Positions 9,312 through 63,196 of a stretch of 64,000 bases of DNA are shown here, one piece after another. The position numbers and the translations under genes are program-made. Source of the DNA: an uncultured Planctomycetia bacterium (GTDB lineage Bacteria > Omnitrophota > Gorgyraeia > Gorgyraeales > Gorgyraeaceae); assembly GCA_964415355.1 (NCBI GenBank), contig CAYPYS010000002.1, positions 74,475 to 138,474 on the forward strand, written 5' to 3'. Positions within the stretch are counted from its first letter, which is position 1. Each line of letters opens with the position of its first letter. Under the pieces are notes generated by a model. The model worked only from the letters and a program-made list of their open reading frames with translations. It was not told the origin of the DNA and ran no database searches.

Positions 9312-9349
9312 TAAGTATACATTTTAACGTTGTTGAAATGTATACTTAG
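9312..9349. repeat. R1v (GTATACA-arm variant) palindromic element
   Basis: taagtatacattttaacgttgttgaaatgtatacttag. Contains the stop of 9346-9825. Confidence 0.85.
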
Positions 9350-9825
9350 TCTTTGACCACCTTTAGCTTGTTTAAATGCGTTAGTAATATGGCTTCTGAT
9401 TCAGGAGCTATCTTTATAAATTTTATCCCTACGTAAAACAGGCGCCTGCCTCGCTCATCCTGAGACTGCATGTCCTTTATCCACATAACCTGTCCTATAA
9501 ACTTCACGGGCTTTGAAAACCCGGGGACCTCTACCTCTAGATCAAGATGTTTCTTTTCATTAAGTTTTTCATAGGTCAGAAGACAGAGTCCTTTTTTTGA
9601 AAGATTTATAGTCTTGGATTCCTGGAAACGGGGCGCTTTGGGCAATAGATTGTATCCGATCTTAAGGTTCTCATCAAACCTGACATACATCCTTCTTTCC
9701 CTCAGCTCCCAGAATTTCCTGGCCAGGCCATGGGTAGTGCTTTTTTTAAGCCTTTTCTCCTCGTTTTTTAGCAGGATCAATATTATACATAAAAATATCA
9801 GTAAGGTTGAATAAAATAAATACAT
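9346..9825 (-). CDS. PilZ-domain protein with an N-terminal TM anchor
   Basis: N-terminal hydrophobic helix, RERRMYVR and INLSKKG motifs. Stop inside the R1v repeat. Confidence 0.65.
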   Translation of the reverse strand: MYLFYSTLLIFLCIILILLKNEEKRLKKSTTHGLARKFWELRERRMYVRFDENLKIGYNLLPKAPRFQESKTINLSKKGLCLLTYEKLNEKKHLDLEVEVPGFSKPVKFIGQVMWIKDMQSQDERGRRLFYVGIKFIKIAPESEAILLTHLNKLKVVKD

Positions 9826-9827
9826 CT

Positions 9828-10907
9828 CTATACCTCGACCAGTTCGTATTGACTCGACCCTAATTTTATTTTTTCACCGTAATTTATTTGTATCGAGGGA
9901 TCTATTTCAGGAAAGATTTCTTTGAATTTACCCATGCCTATCAGGTCAATGCTCGCTTTGTCTATTGCGACAGGGTCGAGCCCGCCTATTATTCCGATAT
10001 CTTGCGTGATAGGGGTTTCGTTTTTTGACATACAGTCACAATTCTTGGTTATATTATATAATAAGTTCATGTACGCTATCTTGGAATTCAGCGCCTTTTT
10101 TACCCCTAGGGCATATTCTACCATCTTTTCCTGGAATTTTGCAACATTTTCGTCATATTTTATCTCGATCGCGCCTGTCCGGCAGATCACAGTGCATTCT
10201 CCGCAGCCAATGCATCTTTCCTTTACCAATATGGCCTTTTTCTTTTTTATGCCTATGGCGTTGGCTGGACAGATATCCATGCATGAGCCGCAGCCGATGC
10301 ATTTATCGGCTGTTATCTCAGGGATGGTCTTGGAATGCTGCTGTAGCTTGCCGGCGCGGGAAGCGCAGCCCATGCCGAGGTTTTTAAGGGCTCCTGCGAA
10401 GCCTGTTTGCATGTGACCTGTTATGTGGGAAAGGCATGCAAGGGAGTCACTTTCGCATATCCCTTTCGCCAGCTTAACGTTTTCAAAATGATCGCCCTGG
10501 ATCGGCACATTCTTGGTGTCCCTGCCCAGAAGGCCGTCGCCTATTATTATAGGAATGCCCAGGCTTTGTAAGCTGAATCCATGTTTGTGCGCGACATTGA
10601 GATGACCGACAGCGTTTGATCTTTTTTCTCTATAGAGCGTATTTGTCTCAGCGACGAATAGATTTTCTGTTTTTTGTTCTTTGAGATACCTTATTAAATC
10701 CAGAAGCCAGTCAGGCTTGATGTAGCCTGAGGTCCCCTCTTCGCCGAAGGTCAGTTTTATCGCAAGAAAATCACCTTTATTGACGAGTCCCGGGGTTTCT
10801 ATTTGTTGCCAGACAGACAGGAGGGCCCTTCCTACCTCGTCTTTTGCTGACCAATCATTGATCCTTTTAAGATATACCTTTGTTTTTTCTGTCTTGGGCT
10901 TCTGCAA
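9828..10907 (-). CDS. DUF362-type protein with two 4Fe-4S ferredoxin motifs
   Basis: CIGCGSCMDICP and CIGCGECTVIC clusters. 359 aa. Confidence 0.55.
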   Translation of the reverse strand: MQKPKTEKTKVYLKRINDWSAKDEVGRALLSVWQQIETPGLVNKGDFLAIKLTFGEEGTSGYIKPDWLLDLIRYLKEQKTENLFVAETNTLYREKRSNAVGHLNVAHKHGFSLQSLGIPIIIGDGLLGRDTKNVPIQGDHFENVKLAKGICESDSLACLSHITGHMQTGFAGALKNLGMGCASRAGKLQQHSKTIPEITADKCIGCGSCMDICPANAIGIKKKKAILVKERCIGCGECTVICRTGAIEIKYDENVAKFQEKMVEYALGVKKALNSKIAYMNLLYNITKNCDCMSKNETPITQDIGIIGGLDPVAIDKASIDLIGMGKFKEIFPEIDPSIQINYGEKIKLGSSQYELVEV

Positions 10908-11982
10908 ATGCTATCCTCCTTGAGATCGGCGGATGGTTATACAGGATTATCTCGTAGAATTTACCGGGAGCTACATCCGAAAGATTTTGAGATGCTAATT
11001 TTTTCATGGTAGATATAAATCCGCCTTTATTTTTTGTGATATCCAGAGCAAACATATCCGCATCGCGCTCCAGCCTTCTTGAATACGAGTTCTGTATCGG
11101 TGTGGAGATTATGTTCAATGACGTGATAATGGCGTAGATCATCACCAGCGATTCGAAATCAAAAAGACGCGCGTAATTCAGGGTATTGTGCAACGTCAGG
11201 AAAAGGTAGTTTGAAATAAAAAACGTTAAAAGCGTCGCAATGCCACTGAATGCAATGGATTTTAATATGTGTTTTAATTTGTGATGCCCCAGCTCGTGAG
11301 CCATCACGACTTCTATTTCCTTGTCGTCAAAGTTTTTAAGCAGCGTGTCGCATAATACTATTCTTTTTTGTCTGCCCAGGCCCATAAGAGCCGCGTTAGC
11401 TTTTTTTGTATCCTTGCTTATGTTCAACTCGTACACACCCTCAGTTTTAAAGCCTACTCTTGACGATAGCCGCATGAGTTTTTGTTTCAAGTTTTCGTTT
11501 TTAATGGGAGAGTATTTATAGAATAGCGGGATTATGAAGATGGGGAAAAACTTGGCGATCAATATAGAAATGAAAAACCAGAGCACCGCGGTCAGCAGCC
11601 ACCAATGCAATGGCCAATACCTCAGGAATACGTATAGCGATACAACAAATGGTATGCTGAGAACAAAAGAAATCGCGTATTTTTTGACTTCTCTGTTTAA
11701 CCAGGTCTTAAATGTCTGATTTGAAAGGGAAAATTTATGCTCTAGCGTGAAACCTGCGTAGTGCGCGAGAGGCAAGGTTATGATCGTGTAAAATAGGCTT
11801 GTAATCGCGTAAAAAATAAGTAGGGCCAGATAACTATTAGAGGTAAAGGATTGCGCGATTAACCTTATGTATACAGGGATGCCAGAAAACACAAAGGCGA
11901 ACAACAGGATAGGGTGTAATAAAATATTTAATATGCCCAATATGTGTTTTTGCCTTGAATAGGCCTTTGCCTTATCTTGCAT
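10867..11982 (-). CDS. M48-family integral-membrane metallopeptidase (Ste24/HtpX-like)
   Basis: MAHELGHHKLKH HExxH within multi-TM protein, 371 aa. Confidence 0.7.
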   Translation of the reverse strand: MQDKAKAYSRQKHILGILNILLHPILLFAFVFSGIPVYIRLIAQSFTSNSYLALLIFYAITSLFYTIITLPLAHYAGFTLEHKFSLSNQTFKTWLNREVKKYAISFVLSIPFVVSLYVFLRYWPLHWWLLTAVLWFFISILIAKFFPIFIIPLFYKYSPIKNENLKQKLMRLSSRVGFKTEGVYELNISKDTKKANAALMGLGRQKRIVLCDTLLKNFDDKEIEVVMAHELGHHKLKHILKSIAFSGIATLLTFFISNYLFLTLHNTLNYARLFDFESLVMIYAIITSLNIISTPIQNSYSRRLERDADMFALDITKNKGGFISTMKKLASQNLSDVAPGKFYEIILYNHPPISRRIAFAEAQDRKNKGIS

Positions 11983-12512
11983 CAGCGTTTTTCCATGTAG
12001 ATATTTCTAATAGCGTTGAGGGCATCTATGTATTCCCTGGCCCTGTAGTCAGGATACGTCCAGTCTGTTGGTTGAAAGCCTGATTTTCTCCACATTAGCG
12101 TTACTTCGCCGTATATGCCGTCTCTCAGATAGAGTCTGTGGCAGTAATCTTTTGTTGTGGCAAGGACGAATTTCGAATCAGACAGGTATCCTGGATCTAT
12201 GTTTATGCGTCTCTTTACTCCGCCATTTTTCTTTACAGAGAGATCGTCCTCGAGAGAGTTTGTGGCGAGTTTTATCTGCGGCAGGCGTTCCGGTGATATG
12301 CGCTCTTTAAAAGAGATGAATTTTCTATTCAGCGGGTGCCCCATCTCTTCTTTGTAATAATCTGTATATTTAAATGGGATCAAGGAGCTCTTATAGTCAG
12401 TAGGCCCGAATTCTTTAATAAAAAACTCTTCGATATCGTCGAAGAGTTTTTTATTTTTTGCCAACATGCCTATGACTAATTTGACTTGCTGAGGAATCTT
12501 TGTTTTCCCCAT
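11982..12512 (-). CDS. Hypothetical protein (DUF4416-like)
   Basis: 176 aa. FIKEFGP...IDPGYL pattern. Family assignment from memory only. Confidence 0.4.
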   Translation of the reverse strand: MGKTKIPQQVKLVIGMLAKNKKLFDDIEEFFIKEFGPTDYKSSLIPFKYTDYYKEEMGHPLNRKFISFKERISPERLPQIKLATNSLEDDLSVKKNGGVKRRINIDPGYLSDSKFVLATTKDYCHRLYLRDGIYGEVTLMWRKSGFQPTDWTYPDYRAREYIDALNAIRNIYMEKR

Positions 12513-12519
12513 ATCGTGT

Positions 12520-13002
12520 TTATAATTTATAGCCTATTTTTCTTAACAGTTCTTTTCTCTTCCCGACTTCTTCTTCGCCTTCTATTCCTTTAGGCGCTGA
12601 ACCATCCACCACGCCCAGTATGCATTTGCCCTGCTCGGTCTCCGAGACAATGACCTCTATATTGTTTGCAGTGGCGCAATATATGGAACATACCTCGGGC
12701 ACGTTTTTTATCGCCCTGAGCACGTTTACGGGATAGGCGTCTTTCATGATGATTATAAATGAATGCCCTGCGCCGATATCCAGAGCGTTTTTCGCGGCTA
12801 TTTTTTTAAGATCATCATCGTTGCCTTCGCATCTTACCAGGCACGGACCCGATGCCTCACAAAACCCAACACCAAATTTTATATTAGGCACGGAATTTAC
12901 CATGGCCTCATATATATCTTCCGCTGTTTTAATGAAATGCGCCTGGCCTATGATCGCATTCGCGTTTTTTGGTACGTCTATTTTTACGACTTTTGTTTTC
13001 AT
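12520..13002 (-). CDS. Adenosine-specific-kinase-like (PF04008-like) protein
   Basis: 160 aa. IIGQAHFIKTAEDIYEA...IGAGHSFII pattern resembles the archaeal-type adenosine kinase family. Function not certain. Confidence 0.5.
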   Translation of the reverse strand: MKTKVVKIDVPKNANAIIGQAHFIKTAEDIYEAMVNSVPNIKFGVGFCEASGPCLVRCEGNDDDLKKIAAKNALDIGAGHSFIIIMKDAYPVNVLRAIKNVPEVCSIYCATANNIEVIVSETEQGKCILGVVDGSAPKGIEGEEEVGKRKELLRKIGYKL

Positions 13003-13011
13003 TTTTAAGGC

Positions 13012-13050
13012 CTAAGTTTACACTTTAACGTTGTTGAAATGTAAAGTTAG
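13012..13050. repeat. R1 palindromic element
   Basis: ctaagtttacactttaacgttgttgaaatgtaaagttag. Contains the stop of 13047-13448. Confidence 0.9.
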
Positions 13051-13448
13051 GAGAGTTTTATGTCGACTTCCTTGATCGTTCCAGGATTAGCGCTTCCTGA
13101 TTCTACGTAGGACTCCAGGGCCTTCCTGTCCTTTTCGGAAATGTCCGTAAAGAATATGGCGGTGTTATGGTGCGCCTTGTCAGTGTTTTTCAATATTACG
13201 GGTTCTGTCCTGACCACGACCCCCTTGCACCTTATTTTTTTAGCCTGCTTGGGCCTAGAGCTATTTTTCTGCGGCACCATAAGCACTACTTCTATCTTGG
13301 ACATCAGCGGAAGCAGCCTTGTCACCCTGCAGTATATCCCGCTTGAACTTACATCCACGGTCTCCGTGATTATGTCGAATGCCTTGTCGGCGATCTTGAG
13401 CGGGAGGCTGCCTTTTGCCCTGAGATGTTTTCTGCGCTCTTCTATCAT
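13047..13448 (-). CDS. PilZ-domain protein
   Basis: RRKHLR and VDVSSSG motifs. Stop inside R1. Confidence 0.65.
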   Translation of the reverse strand: MIEERRKHLRAKGSLPLKIADKAFDIITETVDVSSSGIYCRVTRLLPLMSKIEVVLMVPQKNSSRPKQAKKIRCKGVVVRTEPVILKNTDKAHHNTAIFFTDISEKDRKALESYVESGSANPGTIKEVDIKLS

Positions 13449-13455
13449 GATTTCT

Positions 13456-13890
13456 CTATGCCTTCTTCTCTTCTTTTTTAGCTTCTGCTTTTTTCTTGTC
13501 CTGGTCTGCCAGCTTCCAGCATCTTTTGCTGCAGTAATAGCCGTTGTTCCTGTAATACCAGGATTTTCTTTTCAGGTGTTTGTTGCATTTCATGCAGTTG
13601 GTCGGTTTTTCAATTACCTGAGGTTCTTTTGGTTCTTTCTTTTCTTTAGCAGGCGCCTTTGGCGTTTCTTTGGGGGTCTCCTGAGGGGTCTCCTTGGGAG
13701 CTTCTTTGGAAGTCTCTTTAGGCGCCTCTTTGGGCGTTTCTTTGGTGGTTTCTTTTGTTGGTTCTTCAGCCGGAGCCGGTTCTTTCTTTGCTTCTTCTTT
13801 CTTGGGCTCTGCCTTTGCCTCTTCAGGCGCCTTTACTTCTTCCTGTTTTTCTTCCTGAGGCTGCTTAGCTTCTTTTGCTTCGTCTGCCAT
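13456..13890 (-). CDS. Low-complexity K/E/P/T-rich protein with a C-terminal C-x2-C-x17-C-x2-C zinc finger
   Basis: Tandem KETPKEAPKET repeats. C-terminal CMKCNKHLKRKSWYYRNNGYYCSKRC. Confidence 0.5.
   Translation of the reverse strand: MADEAKEAKQPQEEKQEEVKAPEEAKAEPKKEEAKKEPAPAEEPTKETTKETPKEAPKETSKEAPKETPQETPKETPKAPAKEKKEPKEPQVIEKPTNCMKCNKHLKRKSWYYRNNGYYCSKRCWKLADQDKKKAEAKKEEKKA
13676..13762. repeat. ~12-nt tandem repeat (≈7 units) encoding KE(T/A)PKE tetrapeptide repeats
   Basis: Direct reading shows tcctgaggggtc / tccttgggagct / tctttggaagtc / tctttaggcgcc / tctttgggcgtt ... Confidence 0.5.
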
Positions 13891-15402: not shown

Positions 15403-15448
15403 CAGGTGTCATTGTAATACAGAATCATATAGAACTCAAGCAAAATTT

Positions 15449-15487
15449 TCAACTTTACATTTCAACAACGTTAAAGTGTAAACTTAG
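15449..15487. repeat. R1 palindromic element
   Basis: tcaactttacatttcaacaacgttaaagtgtaaacttag. Confidence 0.85.
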
Positions 15488-15507
15488 AGAGGATTCGGAA
15501 GGGTTGC

Positions 15508-15939: not shown

Positions 15940-15951
15940 GGCGATGAGAAG

Positions 15952-16728: not shown

Positions 16729-16767
16729 CTAACTTTACACTTTAACGTTGTTGAAGTGTAAAGTTAA
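16729..16767. repeat. R1 palindromic element
   Basis: ctaactttacactttaacgttgttgaagtgtaaagttaa. Lies in the divergent region between a PilZ gene and ExeA. Confidence 0.9.
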
Positions 16768-16811: not shown

Positions 16812-17624
16812 ATGTATCTCCATTATTATGACCTCAAAGAAAAGCCTTTTAGCGTAACAGCCGATCCTAATTTTCTCTATCTCAGCAAAAAGCACCAGGA
16901 AGCTATCTCTCACATGCAATATGGCATAAGCGAACGCATGGGTTTTTTGGAGATCTCCGGAGAGATAGGCACCGGGAAAACTACGGTATGCAAGGCCCTG
17001 CTGAATACCCTTGACGAGCACACGAAAACAGCGTTTATTCTAAATTCCAATCTTTCCGAGATACAGCTTATACAGGCCGTGGTCGAAGATCTTGGCATAC
17101 GCTTGAAGAATAAAAATAAGTTTACGATGATCAGCGAGCTGAACAGGTTTTTATTGGAACAGTTGAGTCATGACAATAATGTCGTGCTCATCATAGACGA
17201 GGCCCAGAACCTATCCCTCAGATTACTCGAGCAGGTCCGCTTATTGTCGAATCTCGAGACCGAAAAAGAGAAATTATTGCAGATAATCCTGGTCGGACAG
17301 CCTGAATTGCGGGAAAGGCTGGCATCGAAAAAACTTACGCAGCTGAGGCAGAGGATCGCTATAAGATATCACATGCTGCCACTGGACAAGGGTGAAGTCG
17401 AGGGGTATATGAGCCACAGGCTTAATATAGCCGGTTCTAACGGCAGGAGGTTTTTTGAGCAGGACGCAGTGGAAGAAGTGTTTAATTTTTCCAGAGGCAT
17501 TCCAAGGCTGATTAATATCATATGCGACAAGGCTCTCCTGGCGGGATTCGTATTCAAGAAAAAATCCATACGGGCGGACGCGATAAAGAAATGCGCCAAA
17601 GAGATAGAAGGCATTTTTGATTGA
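16812..17624 (+). CDS. ExeA/GspA-like AAA ATPase (type II secretion / pilus assembly-associated)
   Basis: GEIGTGKTTVCKAL Walker A, LIIDEAQNL Walker B, ExeA-like length. Confidence 0.7.
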   Translation: MYLHYYDLKEKPFSVTADPNFLYLSKKHQEAISHMQYGISERMGFLEISGEIGTGKTTVCKALLNTLDEHTKTAFILNSNLSEIQLIQAVVEDLGIRLKNKNKFTMISELNRFLLEQLSHDNNVVLIIDEAQNLSLRLLEQVRLLSNLETEKEKLLQIILVGQPELRERLASKKLTQLRQRIAIRYHMLPLDKGEVEGYMSHRLNIAGSNGRRFFEQDAVEEVFNFSRGIPRLINIICDKALLAGFVFKKKSIRADAIKKCAKEIEGIFD

Positions 17625-17636
17625 TAGAAGGATCTT

Positions 17637-18176
17637 ATGAGCATAATAAACGACGCCATTAAAAAAGCGAGAAAAGAATTTGAAATAAAAAGCGAAAGTA
17701 TTGTCGGGCCTGCTAATTTTGGTCAAGGCAAAGAAGTAGCTACGGCGGGACCTAAGGCTACAGAGGTAAAATGGATAATAGTGGTCGTTGTATCACTTGT
17801 GTTTATTATTGTATTATTGGGCTCTATGTTCCTGTACAGGTATATGTCAAGAATAAATGCAGCAGATATTGATCTTGCGCCAAATAAGGCCGCTATTAGC
17901 AAAACCGTTCCAAAGAAAGAAGTAACCAGGGCCCCCGCGAATGATAAACGCTACAAAAGAACCAAGCCAAAGCCAAGCCCGCTCAGCAAAAGAACCATTG
18001 GTATAATAGAATTAAACGGGATCGTCCATGGACCGGAAGGCAAATGGGCGATTATAAATGATAGGATAACCAGGGAAGGCGATTCTGTCCCGAACGGAAA
18101 ACTTTCTCATATAGCGGAACGTTTTGTGAAGATTAAGATGGATAATGGCGAAGAAATTACTCTGGAGCTGAGGTAG
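17637..18176 (+). CDS. Single-pass membrane protein, possible GspB/ExeB-like partner of ExeA
   Basis: 179 aa, TM helix WIIVVVVSLVFIIVLLGSMFL. 13 nt downstream of ExeA. Confidence 0.45.
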   Translation: MSIINDAIKKARKEFEIKSESIVGPANFGQGKEVATAGPKATEVKWIIVVVVSLVFIIVLLGSMFLYRYMSRINAADIDLAPNKAAISKTVPKKEVTRAPANDKRYKRTKPKPSPLSKRTIGIIELNGIVHGPEGKWAIINDRITREGDSVPNGKLSHIAERFVKIKMDNGEEITLELR

Positions 18177-18921
18177 CGCTTTCGGCTTCGTCTTTTTTTA
18201 TCCGAGTTTCTATCGCAGAGATTGCTTCTTTGGCAGATGCTTGTTCAGCTGTCTTTTTATTCGACCCCGACCCTATACCGTACCTCTTGCCTAATATAAG
18301 CGCTTCTACTATAAAATGCTTCTTATGGTCAGGCCCTATTTCTGAGATTATCTTATAAGACGGCGTGGTCTTGAATTTCCTGAGCACAGTCTGCTGGAGG
18401 ATGGATTTATAATCTTTTGAACCCTTGCCTTGTTTTACGAGCTGTATCTGCGGCTCAAATATATTTTTTATAAACTTAAAAGCTGATTTTAAATTGCTGT
18501 CCAGATATATGGCCCCTATGACAGCTTCTAAGGCGCAAAGAAGGTTGGATTCATGTTTCTTTCCGCCTGACGCCTCTTCTCCTTTGCCCAGAAGTAAAAA
18601 ATCACCTATTTTAAGCTCTCGCGCAATTCGGCCAAGGGTAGCGCCGCTGACCAACTGAGATTTATATCTTGTTAAAACGCCTTCGTCTTGGTCAGGACAA
18701 TCATCGTACAGGATCCTGCTTATAACGATACCGAGCACGGAGTCCCCGAGGAATTCCAGTCTTTCATTGTCTCCGGATTTCGATTCATATTTCTCGTTCG
18801 CGTAAGATTTATGAGTCAAGGCCTGATTCAGCACCCATTTATTTCTAAATCTATAACCTATCGATTTTTCAAAATATTTAAGCTTTTTTAATCGCGATTT
18901 GTCTATTTTTTTAAGATTCAT
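18157..18921 (-). CDS. rnc: Ribonuclease III
   Basis: ERLEFLGDSVLG RNase III signature, C-terminal dsRBD. Confidence 0.85.
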   Translation of the reverse strand: MNLKKIDKSRLKKLKYFEKSIGYRFRNKWVLNQALTHKSYANEKYESKSGDNERLEFLGDSVLGIVISRILYDDCPDQDEGVLTRYKSQLVSGATLGRIARELKIGDFLLLGKGEEASGGKKHESNLLCALEAVIGAIYLDSNLKSAFKFIKNIFEPQIQLVKQGKGSKDYKSILQQTVLRKFKTTPSYKIISEIGPDHKKHFIVEALILGKRYGIGSGSNKKTAEQASAKEAISAIETRIKKDEAESATSAPE

Positions 18922-21387: not shown

Positions 21388-21413
21388 GGATTCCCGCTTT
21401 CGCGGGAATGACA
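21388..21413. repeat. R2 GC-rich hairpin element (GNRA tetraloop on the minus-strand transcript)
   Basis: ggattcccgctttcgcgggaatgaca, 3 nt upstream of the SD of the SH3b gene. Confidence 0.85.
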
Positions 21414-21430
21414 ATTTTGAAGTATATATT

Positions 21431-21489
21431 CCAACAACGTTAAAGCCTGCCCCGCGTGACTTAAGGAAGTAAAGCGGGGTGTAAAGTTA
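21431..21489. repeat. R1 element interrupted by a 35-bp GC-hairpin insertion (21446-21480)
   Basis: ccaacaacgttaaag + [cctgccccgcgtgacttaaggaagtaaagcggggt] + gtaaagtta. Contains the stop of 21487-21768. Confidence 0.75.
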
Positions 21490-25189: not shown

Positions 25190-25215
25190 GGATTCCCGCT
25201 TTCGCGGGAATGACA
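25190..25215. repeat. R2 hairpin element
   Basis: ggattcccgctttcgcgggaatgaca, in the dgt 5' leader. Confidence 0.85.
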
Positions 25216-28158: not shown

Positions 28159-28232
28159 TGGAGCGGGTGATGGGAATCGAACCCACGCTGCGAGCTTGGG
28201 AAGCTCGTGTTCTACCATTGAACTACACCCGC
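28159..28232 (-). tRNA. tRNA-Gly (anticodon CCC)
   Basis: Minus-strand GCGGGTGTAGTTCAATGGTAGAACACGAGCTTCCCAAGCTCGCAGCGTGGGTTCGATTCCCATCACCCGCTCCA. Cloverleaf with a TTCCCAA anticodon loop. Encoded CCA. Confidence 0.8.
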
Positions 28233-31450: not shown

Positions 31451-31489
31451 CCTAAGTTTACACTTTAACGTTGTTGAAATGTAAAGTTA
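31451..31489. repeat. R1 palindromic element
   Basis: ctaagtttacactttaacgttgttgaaatgtaaagttaa. Confidence 0.9.
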
Positions 31490-32537: not shown

Positions 32538-32576
32538 TACCCGCTTTCTAACTTTACACTTTAACGTTGTTGAAAT
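32538..32576. repeat. R1 palindromic element
   Basis: ctaactttacactttaacgttgttgaaatgtaaagttag. Confidence 0.9.
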
Positions 32577-32588
32577 GTAAAGTTAGGA

Positions 32589-38171: not shown

Positions 38172-38210
38172 ATAACTTTACATTTCAACAACGTTAAAGT
38201 GTAAAGTTAG
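38172..38210. repeat. R1 palindromic element
   Basis: ataactttacatttcaacaacgttaaagtgtaaagttag. Contains the stop of the Trm112-like ORF. Confidence 0.9.
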
Positions 38211-43046: not shown

Positions 43047-43085
43047 CTAACTTTACATTTCAACAACGTTAAAGTGTAAAGTTAG
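43047..43085. repeat. R1 palindromic element
   Basis: ctaactttacatttcaacaacgttaaagtgtaaagttag. Confidence 0.9.
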
Positions 43086-45513: not shown

Positions 45514-45552
45514 CTAACTTTACATTTCAACAACGTTAAAGTGTAAAGTTAG
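45514..45552. repeat. R1 palindromic element
   Basis: ctaactttacatttcaacaacgttaaagtgtaaagttag. Contains the stop of the yjbQ-like gene. Confidence 0.9.
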
Positions 45553-45986: not shown

Positions 45987-46023
45987 TAAGTATACATTTT
46001 AACAATGTTGAAATGTATACTTA
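45987..46023. repeat. R1v variant palindromic element
   Basis: taagtatacattttaacaatgttgaaatgtatactta. Confidence 0.85.
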
Positions 46024-48525: not shown

Positions 48526-48564
48526 CTAACTTTACACTTTAACGTTGTTGAAATGTAAAGTTAG
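48526..48564. repeat. R1 palindromic element (intra-operonic, between RACo and cooC)
   Basis: ctaactttacactttaacgttgttgaaatgtaaagttag. Contains the RACo stop. Confidence 0.9.
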
Positions 48565-50553: not shown

Positions 50554-50578
50554 TGTCATTCCCGCAAAAGCGGGAATC
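50554..50578. repeat. R2 hairpin element, inverted orientation, AAAA loop
   Basis: tgtcattcccgcaaaagcgggaatc. Confidence 0.8.
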
Positions 50579-50597
50579 TATAAAATACTCAATCCAT

Positions 50598-50623
50598 GGA
50601 TCCCCGTTTTCACGGGGATGACA
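50598..50623. repeat. R2 hairpin element, divergent copy
   Basis: ggatccccgttttcacggggatgaca (arms co-varied: CCCCG/CGGGG). Confidence 0.75.
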
Positions 50624-51594: not shown

Positions 51595-51633
51595 TTAACT
51601 TTACATTTCAACAACGTTGAAGTGTAAAGTTAG
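51595..51633. repeat. R1 palindromic element
   Basis: ttaactttacatttcaacaacgttgaagtgtaaagttag. Contains the lepA stop. Confidence 0.9.
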
Positions 51634-53431: not shown

Positions 53432-53470
53432 CTAACTTTACATTTTAACGTTGTTGAAATGTAAAGTTAG
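53432..53470. repeat. R1 palindromic element
   Basis: ctaactttacattttaacgttgttgaaatgtaaagttag. Contains the phosphohexomutase stop. Confidence 0.9.
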
Positions 53471-54892: not shown

Positions 54893-54932
54893 CTTAAGTT
54901 TACATTTCAACAACGTTAAAGTGTAAACTTAA
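54893..54932. repeat. R1 palindromic element with a compensated G/C arm swap
   Basis: cttaagtttacatttcaacaacgttaaagtgtaaacttaa. Contains the rpe stop. Confidence 0.85.
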
Positions 54933-55625: not shown

Positions 55626-55651
55626 GGATTCCCGCGTTCGCGGGAATGACA
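55626..55651. repeat. R2 hairpin element
   Basis: ggattcccgcgttcgcgggaatgaca, directly upstream of the rpe SD (AGGAGA). Confidence 0.85.
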
Positions 55652-58380: not shown

Positions 58381-58392
58381 TTATTCCTCCGC

Positions 58393-58431
58393 CTAACTTT
58401 ACACTTTAACGTTGTTGAAATGTAAAGTTAG
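58393..58431. repeat. R1 palindromic element
   Basis: ctaactttacactttaacgttgttgaaatgtaaagttag. Contains the trpA stop. Confidence 0.9.
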
Positions 58432-59213
58432 CTTTTTAATGATCTTACAAATCTGCCGACTTTTTTAACTAAATCTCCCTTGCCGATGTTCTTTTCGACG
58501 ATTTTTATAATAGCGCTCCCGACGATAACGCCGTCAGCCAATCTTGATATTGACTTTACCTGTTCAGGCTTGGAAATACCAAAGCCTACGCATAAAGGCC
58601 TCTTTGTCATCTTTTTTATTTTTTTCAGGCTGTTCGTGATCTCCTTGGGCAATTCTTTCCTGGCTCCGGTGGTGCCGGTCAGCGAGACATAATAAATAAA
58701 TCCTGTGCTGGCTTTAGATATCATCTTTATTCTTTCTTTGGAACTAGTAGGGGCCAGAAGGTGTATTATTGAAAAGTCATTCTTCTTTCCCGCGCGGCGT
58801 AGTTCTCCTGATTCTTCGGGAGGAAGGTCAGGGATGACGATGCCATCTACGCCAGAAGACTTTGCTTTCTTAACGAATTTCTCTAATCCGCGATGATATA
58901 CAAGATTATAATACGTCAAGAAAACTATGGGGATGGGGGTTTTTGTTCTGATGCTTTTTACAAGATCGCATACTAGATCCATGTTTATTTTATTCTTTAG
59001 CGCGCGTTCCGATGAGCGTTGTATAGTCGGTCCGTCTGCGAGAGGGTCTGAAAACGGCACGCCTAACTCGATGATGTCAGCGCCCTGCTTTTCTAATTCG
59101 AATATAAGTTTTCTTGTAACAGAAAGATTCGGATCCCCTGCCATTATAAAAGCGACAAACGCCTTCTTGCGTTTTTTCTTCAGTTCTTTAAATTTTTTAT
59201 CTATACGGTTCAT
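58428..59213 (-). CDS. trpA: Tryptophan synthase alpha chain
   Basis: IELGVPFSDPLADGPTIQ signature. Confidence 0.85.
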   Translation of the reverse strand: MNRIDKKFKELKKKRKKAFVAFIMAGDPNLSVTRKLIFELEKQGADIIELGVPFSDPLADGPTIQRSSERALKNKINMDLVCDLVKSIRTKTPIPIVFLTYYNLVYHRGLEKFVKKAKSSGVDGIVIPDLPPEESGELRRAGKKNDFSIIHLLAPTSSKERIKMISKASTGFIYYVSLTGTTGARKELPKEITNSLKKIKKMTKRPLCVGFGISKPEQVKSISRLADGVIVGSAIIKIVEKNIGKGDLVKKVGRFVRSLKS

Positions 59214-59224
59214 AAATCACTGTC

Positions 59225-59263
59225 CTAACTTTACATTTCAACAACGTTAAAGTGTAAAGTTAG
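59225..59263. repeat. R1 palindromic element (between trpB and trpA)
   Basis: ctaactttacatttcaacaacgttaaagtgtaaagttag. Contains the trpB stop. Confidence 0.9.
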
Positions 59264-60435
59264 GCGTACACGTCTTTTATTATATCTATGTCTTTATCGC
59301 CCCTGCCGGAAAGACATACGACAATAATCTTATTTTTGGTTAGTTTCGGCGCGAGTCTCTTTACCGCGTAGTAAATCGCGTGACTCGGTTCCAGCGCCGG
59401 TATAATCCCCTCTGCTTCGCATAAGATCTTAAATCCCTCGAGTGCTTCTTTGTCTGTCACGGATACATATTTTGCCCTGCCGGTTTCTTTGTAATAAGAG
59501 TGTTCAGGGCCTACGCCTGGATAATCTAATCCGGCAGAGATCGAATGAGCAACTGTTATTTGACCATCTTTACTTTGCAATAGATAGCTTTTGCTCCCAT
59601 GTAATACGCCTGGCTTTCCTTTGCAGAGAGCTGCGCCATGTTTTCCGCTGTCCAGGCCTAGCCCGCCCGCCTCCACGCCTATAAATTTAACCTTTGTATT
59701 GAAAAATGAATGAAATATCCCTATTGAGTTGCTTCCTCCTCCGACGCACGCAACCAAATAATCCGGAAGTTTCTTTTCATATTTTAAAATTTGCCTCTTT
59801 GACTCTTTGCCTATTATAGCTTGAAAATCCCTGACCATTGCAGGATATGGGTGCGGACCTACGACAGATCCGATTATGTAATGAGTTGTCCTTACGTTTG
59901 TGACCCAGTCTCTTATTGCTTCATTGGTAGCGTCTTTTAAAGTCTTGCTGCCAGAGTGCACAGGGATAACTCTTGCACCCAGGAGTTTCATTTTAAATAC
60001 ATTGAGCTTTTGCCGCTCTATATCCTCTACGCCCATATAAACGTCGCATGGAAGACCGAATACAGCTGCAGCGGTAGCGGTTGCGACTCCGTGCTGGCCT
60101 GCCCCTGTCTCTGCTATTATGCGTGACTTGCCCATCTTTACAGCGAGGAGCGCCTGGCCGAGCGTATTGTTTATTTTGTGCGCGCCTGTGTGGAGCAGGT
60201 CCTCTCTCTTTAGATATATCCTTGCACCATATTTCTTAGAGAGATTTTTGGCAAAGTAGAGCGTTGTTGGTCTGCCTGCGTAAACGCTCAGCAAGCTATT
60301 CAGCTCTCGTTTGAATTTAGTATCCCGGAGAGCTTTTTTATATTCTTTCTCGAGCTCTTGAAGCGCTACCATAAGCGTTTCAGGCACAAACTTTCCACCA
60401 AAACCCTGAAATTTACCCCTTTTATCAGGCAGCAT
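59260..60435 (-). CDS. trpB: Tryptophan synthase beta chain
   Basis: [14 protein letters not shown]-lysine motif. 391 aa. Confidence 0.9.
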
Positions 60436-60504
60436 ATATTTCCCCCATATATAGCTTATAAATTATATAGTAAAAAAGGCAGGGTGTCAATAGTAAGGCT
60501 GAAA

Positions 60505-60542
60505 TAAGTATACATTTCAACATTGTTGAAATGTATACTTAA
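60505..60542. repeat. R1v variant palindromic element
   Basis: taagtatacatttcaacattgttgaaatgtatacttaa. Confidence 0.85.
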
Positions 60543-62503
60543 GGTTCGATTATTGTCTCGCACTTTGGGATTGAGTTTAGGAATTGGCGGCCGTAAGATT
60601 TATTTATAATGCGGCTGTCCAGAATAGCTATTATACCTGTGTCGCTCTTGCTTCTAATGAGCCTGCCGAAGCCCTGCTTGAATCTTAGTACTGCTTCTGG
60701 CAGGCTGTATTCCAGAAAAGCGTCGCCGCCTCTTTTTTGGATCTCCTCTATCCGCGCTTCTATTACAGGTGAATCCGGAACAGCAAACGGGAGTTTAGTA
60801 ATGATTACGTTCGAAAGCGCGTTGCCCTGAACATCTATGCCTTGCCAGAAGCTATCTACGCCAAAGAGAATCGAACCCAGATTGTTTTTGAATTTAGCCA
60901 GCATCTTGCTTCTGCCCAGGCCAGCACCTTGCTTAAGCAGGCTAAAGCCTTTATCAGAGAGATAGCCTTCCAGTTCTTCGTAAACAATATTCATTAGGCC
61001 ATAACTTGTAAATAAAACAAATGCGTTGCCGTTTGTAAATTCAATATATCTTTTTATCCTTTCTGAGACCGCAGAGGCATAGCTGGTAATACTGTCAGGC
61101 CTGGGCATATTTTTAGCTATATACATTCTGACCTGATTTTTATAATCAAAAGGCGAGCCGAGCTTTAATTCTTGAGAGTCTTTTGCCCCCACCCTCTCTT
61201 TAAAGTATTCAAATGAACTGCTGTCGACAGAGAGAGTCGCGCTTGTAAGTATTGTTGGTTTGCGTGATGAAAAAACAAGATTTTTTAAAATATTGCCTAT
61301 GTTTATAGGGGCCGCGTTTATAGAGACTTTGTTCGTCCGCCTGTTCCTGGAGGACTCTATCCAGTATACGTAATTATCAAAAGTCTGGTTGAGTATAACG
61401 TCTAAAGAAGCGCTCAGGGCGTTGATTTTTCTTATATATGTGGCGGTTTCAATCTCGTCTTCCTTGTTTCTGGCATTCTTCCTGGCTTTTGCCAGTGATT
61501 CGCCAAGTTTTTGGAGAGGCGTCAGTAGAGAGTTGTCTATAAAATTCGGGTGCCTTATTCGTAGCGATTCTGATGTCCCATTAAGTTTTTTGCCTTCAAG
61601 ATATTCTTTCGCGCCTTTAAAAAAAGAGTCTGATCTTTTGCGCACTACCTCTACCCATTCCATGCTTTCCTGGTCACCCGTAGTCAGTAAGAAACCTTTT
61701 TGCTTTTTTATATTAAACAAGAGATCCATGAGATATTTTACGCTGATGTTGCTGGCGCTTGCCCCAAGGTGTTCTGTAGCAACGTTCTCTATGCTATGCG
61801 CTTCGTCAAACACCAGTATGTCATATTCGGGGAGTATGCCTTTCTGGTCTTCCTGCATTGCCAGGTTGGAAAAGAATAAGTGATGATTTACGATCAATAG
61901 CCGCGCGTCCTGCATCTTTTCTCTCGCTTTTTGGAAAAAGCATTGTTTTTTATACGGGCAGGCCTTTCCCATGCACGATTCGGTATTCGCTGAGACCATG
62001 TCCCAGACCTTTGGATCCGGTTCTTCGTCCAGATCGTAGAGTGAGCCATCCTCTGTCCTGTACGACCACGCCACTATCTTTGCGAACTGCTGCATTTCGT
62101 ATTCGTCCGCGAACAGGTCTTGCTGTTTAAAGTTAGACCTGCGCAGCCTTCTCAGGCATAGATAATTGCGCCGGCCTTTTACAAGGACAGCCTTGAAATC
62201 TTTTTCCAGGACCTTTTCTAAAAAAGGTATGTCTTTTTGGATGATCTGTTCTTGGAGATTTATGGTGTTCGTGGATATTAGAGCGACTGAGTTGTTTTCG
62301 AGGGCGTATCGGGCGACTGGCACCAGGTAAGAAAAACTTTTGCCAACCCCCGTCCCTGCCTCAACCGCAAGTGTATGCGAATTTAATATAGCCTTCTGAA
62401 CGGCCTTCGCCATTTTTACCTGCTCTTCGCGAGCTTCGTAATTAGGCATTTTTTTGGCGATAGGACCGGATTGGCCAAATACAGTATCTATGTAGTTATT
62501 CAT
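60539..62503 (-). CDS. DinG/Rad3-like ATP-dependent DNA helicase
   Basis: GTGVGKS Walker A, VFDEAHSIEN DEAH box. 654 aa. Confidence 0.75.
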   Translation of the reverse strand: MNNYIDTVFGQSGPIAKKMPNYEAREEQVKMAKAVQKAILNSHTLAVEAGTGVGKSFSYLVPVARYALENNSVALISTNTINLQEQIIQKDIPFLEKVLEKDFKAVLVKGRRNYLCLRRLRRSNFKQQDLFADEYEMQQFAKIVAWSYRTEDGSLYDLDEEPDPKVWDMVSANTESCMGKACPYKKQCFFQKAREKMQDARLLIVNHHLFFSNLAMQEDQKGILPEYDILVFDEAHSIENVATEHLGASASNISVKYLMDLLFNIKKQKGFLLTTGDQESMEWVEVVRKRSDSFFKGAKEYLEGKKLNGTSESLRIRHPNFIDNSLLTPLQKLGESLAKARKNARNKEDEIETATYIRKINALSASLDVILNQTFDNYVYWIESSRNRRTNKVSINAAPINIGNILKNLVFSSRKPTILTSATLSVDSSSFEYFKERVGAKDSQELKLGSPFDYKNQVRMYIAKNMPRPDSITSYASAVSERIKRYIEFTNGNAFVLFTSYGLMNIVYEELEGYLSDKGFSLLKQGAGLGRSKMLAKFKNNLGSILFGVDSFWQGIDVQGNALSNVIITKLPFAVPDSPVIEARIEEIQKRGGDAFLEYSLPEAVLRFKQGFGRLIRSKSDTGIIAILDSRIINKSYGRQFLNSIPKCETIIEP

Positions 62504-63114
62504 TTTTTAAAAAGACTTATTTTTTTCTCTTCACCCTTTCGCAATCGCTTTAAGTTAGACTTATGTTTGTATACGATAATAACGCACAGGATGCTCATGA
62601 ATACGATTATTTCCGTTGGTTCGCCGAATATTAACGTGAATATCGGGATTGCAACAGAGGCTAAAATCGAGGCGACCGACACATACCCTGTCAGGAAGAA
62701 CGCTATTGCCCATGCCAGGAAACCGAGCCAGAATATCTTAGGTATGAGCCCTATGACGACGCCTGCGCTTGTAGCGACACCTTTACCGCCTTTAAATTTC
62801 AGAAATACCGGCCAGTTATGACCGGTTATCGCGGCCATGCCGCACAGGACCTGATATAATTCAGGCCTCGTTACCGGCGTTATATACAGGAATGAATTTG
62901 CGATTAAAGTCGTTGCCATATATCCTTTGAATATATCTATGGCCAGTACGATGATCGCCGGCACCCTGCCTATTACCCTGGAAGCATTTGTAGCACCTAC
63001 GTTCCCGCTTCCATATTGTCGTATATCGACGCCCTTAAGTAATCGCGCGAATATGTAGGCCGTGGGCACTGATCCAATTAAATAAGCAACTATTACTCCT
63101 AAAAATAATACCAT
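62500..63114 (-). CDS. plsY: Glycerol-3-phosphate acyltransferase PlsY
   Basis: GSGNVGATN motif, multi-TM, 204 aa. Confidence 0.85.
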   Translation of the reverse strand: MVLFLGVIVAYLIGSVPTAYIFARLLKGVDIRQYGSGNVGATNASRVIGRVPAIIVLAIDIFKGYMATTLIANSFLYITPVTRPELYQVLCGMAAITGHNWPVFLKFKGGKGVATSAGVVIGLIPKIFWLGFLAWAIAFFLTGYVSVASILASVAIPIFTLIFGEPTEIIVFMSILCVIIVYKHKSNLKRLRKGEEKKISLFKK

Positions 63115-63125
63115 GAGTTCCTTTT

Positions 63126-63151
63126 GGATTCTCGCTTTCGCGGGGATGACA
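63126..63151. repeat. R2 hairpin element, divergent copy
   Basis: ggattctcgctttcgcggggatgaca, directly upstream of the plsY SD. Confidence 0.75.
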
Positions 63152-63155
63152 GCGC

Positions 63156-63196
63156 CTTAAGTATACATTTTAACATTGTTGAAATGTATACTTAAG
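63156..63196. repeat. R1v variant palindromic element (adjacent to R2)
   Basis: cttaagtatacattttaacattgttgaaatgtatacttaag. Confidence 0.85.

Follow-up and report, generated by a model that had tools for sequence, protein, structure and literature searches.

TnpAREP, the transposase of the REPtrons, binds and processes folded single-stranded REPs by way of their stem irregularities and loops (PMC3479197, PMC8266576), and RAYT genes are flanked by, and co-evolve with, their cognate REPs (PMC2817692). For other Y1 transposase homologues, those of TnpAY1 subclass 2.1 (TIRYT), Quentin et al. 2018 (PMC6006769) reported terminal inverted repeats of the form GGGG[AT][CG]A[CG] and no REP-like sequences nearby. 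In the IS200/IS605 family (IS608, ISDra2) and its non-autonomous derivatives, a Y1 transposase recognises imperfect subterminal hairpins once the single-stranded DNA has folded; the hairpins left and right of the gene differ from each other. Correia elements of Neisseria and MITEs such as RUP, ERIC and Nezha are abundant intergenic inverted repeats with TA ends, which are co-transcribed and fold into RNA hairpins cleavable by RNase III. Here, we describe R1 and R1v, sub-families of one family of repeats in an Omnitrophota genome, which are probably repetitive extragenic palindromes (REPs) of a new kind, small and mobile; a mobile, REP-like nature was absent from the earlier note on this DNA.

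The window, a 64-kb segment of an Omnitrophota chromosome, contains 25 copies of one palindrome of 37-41 nt. Its core, TTYAACRWTGTTGAAAT, gave 33 strand matches at two or fewer mismatches against 0.17 expected; these merged into the 25 loci of Table 1, two of which are cut back or interrupted, and a covariance-model search of the window returned no further copies. The density is about one copy per 2.6 kb, and 24 of the approximately 78 gene junctions of the window (about a third) are occupied. R1 was absent from viral contigs. In the palindrome, outer arms of 10 bp enclose a conserved apex, TTYAAC-RWT-GTTRAA. The unit has three parts: the outer stem, an apical stem (Y-TT-Y-AAC / GTT-R-AA-R) whose sequence is kept with two tolerated Y.R irregularities, and a 3-nt loop. 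The arms of the majority form are TAACTTTACA / TGTAAAGTTA and those of R1v are TAAGTATACA / TGTATACTTA. The core had been idealised as ACAC...GTGT, a form found only in copies 16748 and 25239; most majority copies, in the core orientation, read ACAC...AAATGT, which leaves pair 14/30 mismatched as C.A and pair 17/27 as T.G. Folded as RNA or as DNA, the hairpins are predicted to be stable, with z-scores of -3 to -9.

Table 1. R1 and R1v copies in the window. A/A, arms of the TAACTTTACA type; B/B, arms TAAGTTTACA/TGTAAACTTA; hybrid, mixed arm types, TAAGTTTACA / TAACTTTACA in copy 13013..13049.
Position	Strand	Element and arms	Remarks	Covariance model
1364..1393	-	R1	left arm and core only, right arm replaced by CCCGCC...	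43.4 bits
2332..2368	-	R1, A/A	T14-A30 paired	
4801..4837	+	R1, A/A	TAA stop of upstream gene inside arm	
6569..6605	-	R1, A/A		
9312..9348	+	R1v, TAAGTATACA/TGTATACTTA	loop GTT; stop codon inside arm	
13013..13049	+	R1, hybrid	uncompensated G.G at pair 7/37	
15450..15486	-	R1, hybrid	G.G mismatch; outer right arm GTTG	
16730..16766	+	R1, A/A	C14-G30 paired (GAAGT); divergent intergenic region	
21420..21489	-	R1, interrupted	left arm 21479-21489, 34-nt insert, core and R1v-like right arm 21420-21444	41.8 bits
25221..25257	+	R1, A/A	C14-G30 paired; stop codon inside arm; R2 repeat directly downstream	
31453..31489	+	R1, hybrid	uncompensated G.G	
32549..32585	+	R1, A/A		
38173..38209	-	R1, A/A	AGGAGG-ATG directly downstream	
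43048..43084	-	R1, A/A	upstream of promoter-like TTGACA...TACAAT	
45515..45551	-	R1, A/A	fills YjbQ-HPS junction	
45987..46023	+	R1v	loop AAT; stop codon inside arm	
48527..48563	+	R1, A/A	RACo-CooC junction	
51596..51632	-	R1, A/A	C17-G27 paired; LepA-LepB junction	
53433..53469	+	R1, A/A	PGM-LepA junction	
54895..54931	-	R1, B/B	single compensated G/C swap	
58394..58430	+	R1, A/A	TrpA junction	
59226..59262	-	R1, A/A	TrpB-TrpA junction	
60505..60541	+	R1v	18-bp stem fully paired; loop ATT	
63158..63194	+	R1v	loop ATT; R2 repeat directly downstream	
63773..63809	+	R1, A/A	loop ATT	

Like the palindromes of REPtrons (E. coli REP-TnpAREP, PDB 4ER8; REPs and REPINs of Stenotrophomonas and Pseudomonas), which measure 20-40 bp, R1 is a short, high-copy extragenic palindrome with species-specific sequence families and stem irregularities. 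It differs in its very high density, in a conserved apex with a variable stem base, in units that typically begin at a stop codon, in lacking an unpaired GTAG or CGTC tag, and in occurring as single hairpins rather than as inverted pairs, REPINs or BIMEs. The missing tag and the singlet units count against a REP reading, since known REPs depend on a tag and on paired units for their mobilisation. The host phylum lies outside the coverage of the surveys consulted. With integron attC sites R1 shares a structure that is kept while sequence varies, AAC...GTT motifs and, presumably, use as a folded single strand with unpaired specificity bases; the arrangement is reversed, however, since attC carries its RYYYAAC/GTTRRRY boxes at the outer ends around a varying centre, and R1 lies between housekeeping genes rather than cassettes. 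No integrase was seen.

The four R1v copies lie where the earlier note had placed them, and in all four the left-arm changes C to G and T to A are mirrored on the right by G to C and A to T. The single compensated G/C swap reported for the copy centred at 54913 is likewise present (TTAAGTTTACA...TGTAAACTTAA). The observation of compensated arm changes holds; three copies that had been overlooked, 13031, 15468 and 31471, carry C to G on one arm only, leaving a G.G mismatch. The four R1v copies form a single sub-family that spread by copying, and count as one or two events rather than four independent compensations. A larger set of 70 copies showed pairing in 90% of cells and covariation above chance, with a score of 0.225 against 0.109 in shuffled alignments (0 of 500 shuffles reached 0.225); pairing falls to 27-49% in slid registers. 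Pair 7/37 is CG in 34 copies, GC in 31 and other in 5; pair 10/34 is UA in 52, CG in 10 and GC in 5; and pair 9/35 is UA in 61 and AU in 7. Among 184 unique copies from the window genome and related genomes, at least 94.6% pair at each stem position between 2 and 18 nt from the centre of the loop. The two internal Y.R positions are exceptions, each side varying independently without covariation; beyond 20 nt, pairing is at background. The outer arms are perfectly complementary in 156 of the 184, and they fall into 11 self-complementary types joined by at least 17 paired substitutions. These results demonstrate a family of hairpins with covarying arms, and partly bear out the proposal that the base-paired structure is selected. 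The joint change of the arms probably reflects a need of the element to form a hairpin, and comparison of the copies supports the view that the arms are constrained to pair, not to keep their sequence. Sequence itself is conserved in the centre, consistent with a specific contact by a protein, as had been proposed.

Covariation could also arise without selection on the hairpin. Templated correction of quasi-palindromes, by which template switching during replication copies a mutation from one arm to the other and the arms evolve in concert, is an established mutational mechanism, and many of the mismatched copies are hybrids between two existing arm types, as half-converted intermediates would be. 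Yet most copies keep the C.A and T.G irregularities without correction, and arm types common to many dispersed loci require copying of whole units. If the palindrome were instead a double-stranded operator bound by a dimeric protein, as the resemblance of TTYAAC-N3-GTTRAA to a dimer-binding site might suggest, each half-site would span an implausible 18 bp, with its outer half free to vary; the genes flanking R1 copies are functionally unrelated. We regard template switching or an operator as the least probable of the explanations considered here.

The R1 copies are intergenic, nearly all of them between co-directional genes. In 15 of 23 full copies the stop codon of the upstream gene is the TAA of the arm, and most copies end 5-20 nt ahead of a Shine-Dalgarno sequence and ATG. 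Such placement would suit an RNA hairpin selected in polycistronic mRNAs as a 3'-end stabiliser, RNase III site or translational-coupling modulator, the DNA repeat being its vehicle, and many REPs have been argued to act as RNA elements (Di Nocera et al., PMC3733652). The forms in the window fold as RNA at -11 to -20 kcal/mol, their 18-22 bp stems have the size of RNase III substrates, an RNase III gene lies in the window (18157-18921), and the apex consensus, being palindromic, gives the same RNA consensus from either orientation. Nevertheless, we consider this explanation unlikely. On the sense strand G.U is not favoured over A.C (41 vs 40; 16:13 among informative copies), hairpins at given junctions are not kept among sister species, copy 16748 falls within a divergent promoter region, and an Rfam search gave no match to R1; the clustering of copies around a Y1 transposase gene would also be left unexplained. 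The orientation of R1 relative to transcription is random (32:29). Of the RNA hairpin or DNA cruciform suggested earlier, the pairing constraint stands while RNA is not favoured: because there is neither a G.U excess over A.C nor an orientation bias, we favour a single-stranded DNA hairpin recognised by a transposase, and infer that single-stranded DNA is the substrate. The random orientation also weighs against a REP reading, since a strand-specific single-stranded DNA enzyme might leave a bias within one replichore.

Comparison of orthologous junctions in sister species (contigs L033 and L035) demonstrates gain, loss and replacement: R1 may be present, absent, of another sub-family or replaced by an unrelated palindrome. 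R1 occupies the YjbQ-HPS and PGM-LepA junctions in the window but is absent from both in L033 and L035; at the LepA-LepB junction, the window has a copy and L033 has none. At the junction of copy 43048..43084, L035 is empty and L033 carries a B/B copy; the RACo-CooC junction carries A/A in the window and L035 and B/B in L033; and the L033 orthologue of the TrpA-junction copy differs by 3 substitutions. At the RPE-PGM junction, L035 provides one clean empty site (ccgTTAAGAAG), L033 carries an A-type copy, and the window has a 35-nt B/B insert (copy 54895..54931) between TTAA(G) repeats. Contigs from the same population as the window (99.9% identical) show no polymorphic copy and so no sign of ongoing activity.

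A cut-and-paste element that duplicates its target could also have left the TTAA(G) direct repeat, which in the clean pair of empty and filled sites surrounds an insert of 30-31 nt. If R1 were a MITE, formed by fusion of two terminal inverted repeats and mobilised in double-stranded form by a DDE transposase (e.g. IS630/Tc1-like) with TA or TTAA target duplication, its arms would match because both ends bind the same transposase, and the TA at both ends of every sub-family and the weak symmetric flank preference C-Y-TAA...TTA-R-G agree with this. However, several arm types occur together in one genome around a constant centre, so that the DDE enzyme would have to change with each type; the variation lies 3-7 nt from the ends; the outer bases of the A type are palindromic (CTAAC...GTTAG), not a direct repeat; and no DDE transposase was seen beside any copy, whereas a Y1 transposase was. 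We therefore judge a MITE, with arms matched in this way, very unlikely. Correia elements and the MITEs named above are 100-400 bp long, with terminal repeats around a body, and DDE-linked, whereas R1 is 37-41 nt and Y1-linked. Insertion beside a short specific sequence without true duplication, as in IS200/IS605, would fit the TTAA-flanked insert; R1, unlike those elements, is one near-symmetric hairpin alone.

On two related Omnitrophota contigs, L096 and L124, the repeat has the R1 apex with other arms, CAACTTGACA. These genomes have a lower repeat density and are the source of the one RAYT found with exactly the R1 apex. The reading frame L096:180-1076 and its L124 homologue have two R1 copies upstream and one overlapping the stop, scored by the R1 model at 37-58 bits. 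The L096 protein matches Pfam Y1_Tnp (39.6 bits; cut-off 23) and the full NCBIfam REP_Tyr_transpos profile (E 2.5e-17), at 63 bits, below the equivalog cut-off of 80. Its AlphaFold2 model (pLDDT 82) has as best PDB fold match 4ER8, TnpAREP bound to REP (E 4e-4, TM 0.73), ahead of IS200, IS608 and ISDra2; sequence searches of PDB did not reach 4ER8. Across 74 homologues, the HUH motif and the YIHxNPV/YRWSS motifs show no or almost no variation. The gene has six further lineages, which lie in the conserved synteny hom-thrC-gene-HTH_3, each flanked by hairpins of R1 architecture with a lineage-specific apex. As in REPtrons, then, the gene occurs once per locus in conserved synteny, is flanked by repeats that change together with the transposase lineage, and encodes a predicted fold closest to TnpAREP. 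The protein differs in its length of about 295 aa and its C-terminal HTH domain (weak Pfam matches HTH_7, HTH_23 and HTH_29). A Y1/HUH core followed by an HTH is shared with TnpAY1 subclass 2.1, from which the gene differs in being flanked by dispersed hairpin repeats. These sequence associations and the modelled fold, both in related genomes, point to the RAYT-like Y1 transposase as a candidate protein for R1. No Y1 transposase gene was found in the window or in about 170 kb from its closest relatives; the organism presumably has its own, and the enzyme is presumably still active.

Taken together, R1 and R1v are probably non-autonomous REPs, whose arms covary through hairpin folding for recognition by a REP-type tyrosine transposase. 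The unit would fold wherever the DNA becomes single-stranded, as at the replication fork, and would be bound by a REP-associated tyrosine (HUH/Y1) transposase that recognises the apex, with its irregularities, specifically but the outer stem without specificity. By cleaving and rejoining the DNA, at sites whose exact position we infer, the enzyme would copy or move units to new YTAA/TTAR sites, and in a compact genome the tolerated sites would mostly be TAA stop codons at gene junctions. Variants changed in one arm would fold and spread poorly; a complementary second change would restore folding and could found a new sub-family, giving the observed covariation. Selection on R1 thus most plausibly acts on propagation, and the hairpins, once transcribed, may also act on mRNA, which would be secondary or co-opted later.

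R1, the intergenic palindrome, was delimited from its core TTYAACRWTGTTGAAAT, which has 33 matches on both strands of the window with at most two mismatches, against 0.17 expected by chance. These matches correspond to 25 loci, to which a covariance model built from the family added none. The unit reads (C)TAACTTTACA-C-TTTAAC-GTT-GTTGAAA-T-GTAAAGTTA(G) and folds into a stem of 17-18 bp with a loop of 3 nt; pairing spans 37 nt (a 17-bp stem and the 3-nt loop), or 41-47 nt in some sub-families. The majority form has two irregularities, a C.A mismatch and a T.G, which lie 8 and 5 nt, respectively, from the loop centre. Contigs of the CAYULJ genome contain 43 R1 copies, and many more were found in metagenome contigs; a scan of GTDB species genomes detected the apex in three Omnitrophota MAGs, and a metagenome scan yielded 109 further stretches with R1. 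Rfam contained no match to R1, a permissive scan of two copies being blank at E up to 5, and a known RNA family was rejected as its identity because no covariance model matched.

The earlier note had proposed that mirrored arm differences in the R1v sub-family preserve the hairpin. These differences were confirmed in four copies, as was a single mirrored G/C swap in a fifth. Its covariant copies are real, and its set missed three copies in which one arm alone carries the C-to-G change, as well as two damaged copies. Across 70 copies, 90% of cells pair and the covariation score is twice the shuffled value, reached in 0 of 500 shuffles; in slid registers, pairing falls to 27-49%. In a set of 184 unique copies, each position 2-18 nt from the loop centre pairs in at least 94.6%, except those at 5 and 8 nt; pairing drops to 67% at 19 nt, 53% at 20 nt and background farther out. 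The outer 10 bp comprise 11 self-complementary types (TAACTTTACA, TAAGTTTACA, TAAGTATACA, TAAGTTCACA, CAACTTGACA, CAACTTTACA, CAAGTTTACA, AAACTTCACA, AATTTTCACA, ATTGCTAATG and ATTGCTTACA), which a minimum spanning tree links by 17 paired substitutions. Outer arms are perfect in 156 of the 184 copies and mismatched in 28, many of which are hybrids of two existing arm types. The earlier note had named arm mismatches as frequent as compensated pairs as the outcome contrary to its claim, and these counts do not show that outcome. R1 copies are non-independent because sub-families spread as units; counted as events, the 21 distinct one-sided variants are about as numerous as the paired changes. 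One-sided variants stay rare, and paired variants attain many copies.

Positions, as numbered within each sequence, of the repeats and genes discussed
Feature	Sequence	Position	Strand	Remark
R1v copy	window	9312		arms TAAGTATACA / TGTATACTTA
R1v copy	window	45987		arms TAAGTATACA / TGTATACTTA
R1v copy	window	60505		arms TAAGTATACA / TGTATACTTA
R1v copy	window	63158		arms TAAGTATACA / TGTATACTTA
R1 copy	window	54895-54931		single mirrored G/C swap
R1 copy	window	13031		C-to-G on one arm only
R1 copy	window	15468		C-to-G on one arm only
R1 copy	window	31471		C-to-G on one arm only
R1 copy 1375	window	1364-1393		damaged
R1 copy 21437	window	21420-21489		damaged
R1 copy	window	16730-16766		bounds plus-strand island
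Plus-strand island	window	16812-18176	+	AAA_22 ATPase (270 aa), 179-aa ORF
RNase III gene	window	18157-18921	-	
tRNA	window	28162-28232	-	
R2 copy	window	21388-21412	-	
R2 copy	window	25190-25214	-	
R2 copy	window	50555-50579	+	
R2 copy	window	50598-50622	-	own compensated changes
R2 copy	window	55626-55650	-	
R2 copy	window	63126-63150	-	
R1 copy	L033	10787-10831		RACo gene end, where the ORF enters R1
R1 copy	L001	2621-2684		apex replaced
R1 copy	L035	9749-9960		split in loop
Y1 transposase gene	L096	180-1076		flanked by R1
Region of second Y1_Tnp gene	L160	1-870		227 aa

At the two internal positions, 5 and 8 nt from the loop centre, the left base is Y and the right base R, and the two vary independently; at 5 nt the 184 copies comprise TG 107, TA 31, CG 26 and CA 20, near the values that independent margins would give. 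Both are irregularities that the element tolerates rather than pairs that covary. Selection-free homogenisation of the arms by quasi-palindrome template switching could contribute to the resolution of hybrids, but it cannot spread arm types to dispersed loci, and the two standing irregularities have not been erased. Fold-back templating of one arm from the other was ruled out, since most copies have inherited the same C.A and T.G irregularities, and in-situ inversion was rejected as an origin for the swap from C-G to G-C because a palindrome is unchanged by inversion.

R1 occupies 24 of about 78 gene junctions in the window and about one quarter of its intergenic bases. The TAA of the 5' arm serves as the stop codon of the upstream gene in 15 of 23 full copies, another in-element stop in none of the 23, and most copies terminate a few nucleotides short of the ribosome-binding site. 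An RNA role of the hairpin is compatible with this placement at junctions and may exist as a secondary function. It leaves unexplained the strand symmetry of the element, its turnover and its association with a transposase. The asymmetric core is oriented 32:29 with respect to transcription, and the sense strand has 41 G.U against 40 A.C (16:13 among copies where the counts differ); the transcribed strand is therefore unmarked. In the sister genome L033, the RACo ORF enters an R1 copy and stops at the apex TAA (cTTTAAc), not the arm TAA, so the element can re-define the C-terminus of a gene.

GC content in the window is about 42%, and both the GC and the AT skew are strongly negative. Almost all long ORFs lie on the minus strand, and the housekeeping genes include LepA, ThiC, biotin carboxylase (AccC), phosphoglucomutase, M16 peptidase, RACo, TrpB/TrpA, ACS/CODH, RNase III and DHQ synthase. 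A phage origin was ruled out: there was no match in a phage collection, the genes are housekeeping, and a viral scan found the R1 pattern in no viral contig. The sole clear plus-strand island, whose 179-aa ORF has no Pfam match, has at its border an R1 copy that lies between divergent genes. The RNase III gene bears on any RNA-level processing of 18-22 bp hairpins, and the tRNA is the only Rfam match in the window.

Contigs 99.9-100% identical to the window are present in several metagenomes. Ten of them, from the same population, contained zero indels and no R1 polymorphism, so strain-level comparison was uninformative. No synteny with the window was detected in the first 22 genome loci at the DNA or protein level, and syntenic loci were obtained instead through LepA homologues: L033 (95% identity), L035 (94%), L036 (82%) and L037 (81%). 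Many Omnitrophota MAG proteins show about 82% LepA identity to the window, 'Ca. Gorgyraea atricola' 81%, and the two close relatives 94-95%. On the basis of these LepA homologues, the window belongs to Candidatus Omnitrophota.

Orthologous junctions were compared among the window and these two close relatives, where A denotes the majority arm type and B the arms with the single compensated G/C swap. At RPE-PGM, the window carries a B/B copy (ccgTTAAG-[30 nt]-TTAAGAAGAAAGGG), L033 an A-type copy and L035 an empty site (ccgTTAAGAAGAAAGGG); at RACo-CooC, the copy is A/A in the window and L035 and B/B in L033. YjbQ-HPS is filled in the window and empty in both relatives, PGM-LepA is filled in the window, empty in L033 and without R1 in L035, and LepA-LepB is filled in the window and L035 and empty in L033, where the genes overlap. 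This gain, loss and replacement at orthologous junctions demonstrates that the junction hairpins are not conserved entities and turn over like mobile elements. At the TrpA junction, the orthologues of the window and L033 differ at three positions within identical flanks, the L033 copy being perfectly paired and the window copy having the usual irregularities of the window. L038 and L001 share identical immediate flanks around arms of two different types; an in-situ change is possible there, because these genomes are only about 88% identical overall. No R1 was found in L036 or L037. These relatives, at about 82% LepA identity, carry unrelated long palindromes (for example GGTCCAGCCTCGGCTTTTTCAAAAGCCGAGGCTGGACC, CTACATTTGTAGACCAGGTTTAAACCTGGTCTACAAATGTAG and GGGTACACCCTACTTTG...CAAAGTAGGGTGTACCC) at TrpB-TrpA, RPE-PGM, PGM-LepA, LepA-LepB, Pter-YjbQ and YjbQ-HPS, some of which take in the upstream stop codon.

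The single clean empty/filled pair has a TTAA(G) direct repeat, which fits duplication of TA, TTAA or TTAAG and insertion 3' of TTAA alike; the outer bases of the A type are palindromic, with TA as the only repeat. A DDE-type MITE (IS630/Tc1-like) would also fit this single TTAA(G)-flanked insert, but not the many arm types around one shared centre, and no IS with matching terminal repeats was seen.

Several R1 copies are themselves interrupted. In copy 1375, a sequence beginning CCCGC[CT]TT follows the core, and in copy 21437 a 34-nt insert of such a sequence splits the arm from the core; the R1 apex is replaced by 25 nt in L001, and in L035 R1 is split in the loop by about 170 nt with other palindromes. 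These interrupted copies suggest that R1 is a target of other small elements. The window also contains a second repeat family, R2. Its sequence, GTCAT[TC]CCCG[CT]GAAA[GA]CG[GA]G[AG]ATCC, folds into a GC-rich hairpin that leaves a 5' GTCAT tag unpaired, and it fits the ATTCCC-N8-GGGAAT pattern of Neisseria dRS3 repeats. Three R2 copies lie directly downstream of R1 copies, one has compensated changes of its own (TCCCCGT...ACGGGGA), and the copy at the M16-RPE junction is kept in L033, with a similar unit in L037.

A motif scan of all the DNA analysed for HUH...Y proteins returned one ORF family, in L096 and L124. The L096 gene has two R1 copies upstream and a third overlapping its stop codon, and the same arrangement is found in L124; the R1 model scores these flanking copies at 37-58 bits, with apex TT[TC]AAC-AAT-GTT[GA]A.. 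and arms CAACTT[GT]ACA. Tandem pairs of R1 occur only upstream of the transposase gene. The L096 protein matches Pfam Y1_Tnp (39.6 bits, cut-off 23) and, over the full profile, NCBIfam REP_Tyr_transpos (E 2.5e-17; 63 bits, below the equivalog cut-off of 80), with weak Pfam matches to a C-terminal HTH. Since a PDB sequence search was too weak to reach TnpAREP, the REP-associated Y1 transposase (RAYT), a fold search was used. The AlphaFold2 model of a homologue (pLDDT 82) had its best PDB match in 4ER8 (E 4e-4, TM 0.73 on target), E. coli TnpAREP bound to the REP hairpin, and matches to IS200, IS608 and ISDra2-type transposases were lower (TM 0.50-0.63). The motifs NH.HLL, YIH.NPV and YRWSS are conserved in the family, which has 535 matches at E <=1e-10; those with a source name are labelled Omnitrophota.

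Seven transposase lineages, at 54-69% identity, sit in one synteny. Five further lineages share the gene order homoserine dehydrogenase, threonine synthase, Y1 gene, HTH_3, Tricorn_N-like gene and a protein of about 2,000-2,700 aa; in the sixth (P0125), contigs start at the Y1 gene and only the downstream part of this order is visible. The Y1-HTH gene lies between threonine synthase and the small HTH_3 gene in L147, L149-L151, L156, L157, L159 and L160, and L096, L124, L148 and L154 cover the downstream part only. The giant protein, encoded after the Tricorn_N-like gene, has PKD/MG2 domains, and a conserved promoter-like spacer, TTGAAAGAAAA.CGCC...ATGTGTCTA.TATATA, separates the two upstream hairpins. 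In all six further lineages, the hairpins on either side of the Y1 gene follow the plan outer stem-ACAY-apex-RTGT-outer stem, in which the apex is lineage-specific: TCTAAC-AAT-GTTAGA, TCTGAC-AAT-GTCA.., TTTTAGTCCAGAACTGAAG (B-type outer arms), TTTTAGGTCTTGCTTTAAA (A-type) and TTTAAGTCAATGAC.. (B-type). Thus, each transposase lineage is flanked by hairpins with their own apex in a common architecture, as expected of co-evolution. In addition, L160 contains another Y1_Tnp gene, which is shorter, directly follows a tRNA-like sequence and is bracketed by inverted repeats GGGGACAGGCTACTTTTT / AAAAAGTAGCCTGTCCCC that match the GGGG[AT][CG]A[CG] TIRYT consensus (PMC6006769); both kinds of Y1 gene are therefore present in one genome.

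R1 shares with REPs their size (a small palindrome of about 20-40 bp able to form a stem-loop), abundance and extragenic location (25 copies in 64 kb, all between ORFs) and the flanking of a transposase. The Omnitrophota Y1 genes, as putative RAYTs, show the REPtron arrangement (a REP with its RAYT) and the co-evolution of REP and RAYT that Nunvar et al. reported (PMC2817692). Their inheritance, seemingly single-copy and syntenic, agrees with Bertels et al. (PMC5581495). R1 differs from the described REP super-families (PMC3733652) in tag and pairing organisation: GTAG, CTAC, CGTC or GACG occurs in 0-8 of 184 flanks, the flanks hold at most 0.2 bits per position beyond 20 nt from the loop centre, and the window copies are isolated single hairpins, nearest neighbours at least 470 nt apart, rather than REPINs or BIMEs. 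The R1-linked protein shares a C-terminal HTH with TnpAY1 subclass 2.1; REPs near this subclass were reported absent (PMC6006769). A full-text literature search returned nothing relevant on palindromic or intergenic repeats of Omnitrophota. Integron attC sites were ruled out, their conserved and variable parts being reversed and a cassette context absent, and parS, DNA-uptake sequences and restriction-site palindromes misfit the variable complementary arms in copy number and architecture.

The main gap in the REP reading is the window organism's own transposase: a Y1 gene flanked by the same repeat is present in related genomes, and tblastn found none in the window or any close-relative locus, a search that covered, for this genome, 64 kb and about 6 kb more. 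All five traced homologues come from other genomes. One of them (P0188) is from the same samples as the window and has A-type arms with a different apex, and no canonical R1 was found on its 21-kb contig. Further weak points are the missing GTAG/CGTC tag, the singlets, the unbiased orientation and the lack of within-population polymorphism. Taken together, the covariation reported in the earlier note is real and its structural view essentially right, and R1 functions like a REP; what explains it is a family of mobile REPs, not a novel class of structured RNA.

TnpAREP acts on REPs folded as single strands, which it binds and processes, reading their loops and stem irregularities (PMC3479197, PMC8266576). 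By analogy, R1 units are best read as folding in single-stranded DNA. The Y1 enzyme would read the apex, the Y.R irregularities and perhaps the loop, and the outer stem would be required merely as a helix; units losing pairing would spread poorly, and those regaining it could found sub-families. Insertion beside YTAA would lead to placement at stop codons in a compact genome, whose remaining TAA sites are within genes. A broader scenario, which we regard as improbable, is that Omnitrophota harbour a distinct kind of REPtron, in which a vertically inherited Y1 transposase with a C-terminal HTH, of a class so far reported as not REP-associated, seeds tagless single hairpins at TAA stops until one third of gene junctions are filled; the host would have co-opted them as operon punctuation (mRNA processing, stability or translational coupling), with lineages maintaining unrelated palindromes at the same junctions.

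Most knowledge of REPs and their domesticated transposases comes from Proteobacteria, and their mode of spread is unsettled. R1 offers a clean natural experiment, combining a constant apex with at least 11 interchangeable complementary outer stems, two fixed Y.R irregularities, insertion at stop codons and a transposase family at a fixed chromosomal position across an uncultured phylum. Taken together, these features distinguish the parts of a REP that are recognised by shape from those recognised by sequence. R1 repeats also fragment metagenome assemblies and can cause errors in gene calling; several genes end inside the element. Furthermore, R1 ties an HTH-bearing Y1 transposase to dispersed hairpins and shows that, in a compact genome, one 37-nt element can account for a quarter of the DNA between genes.
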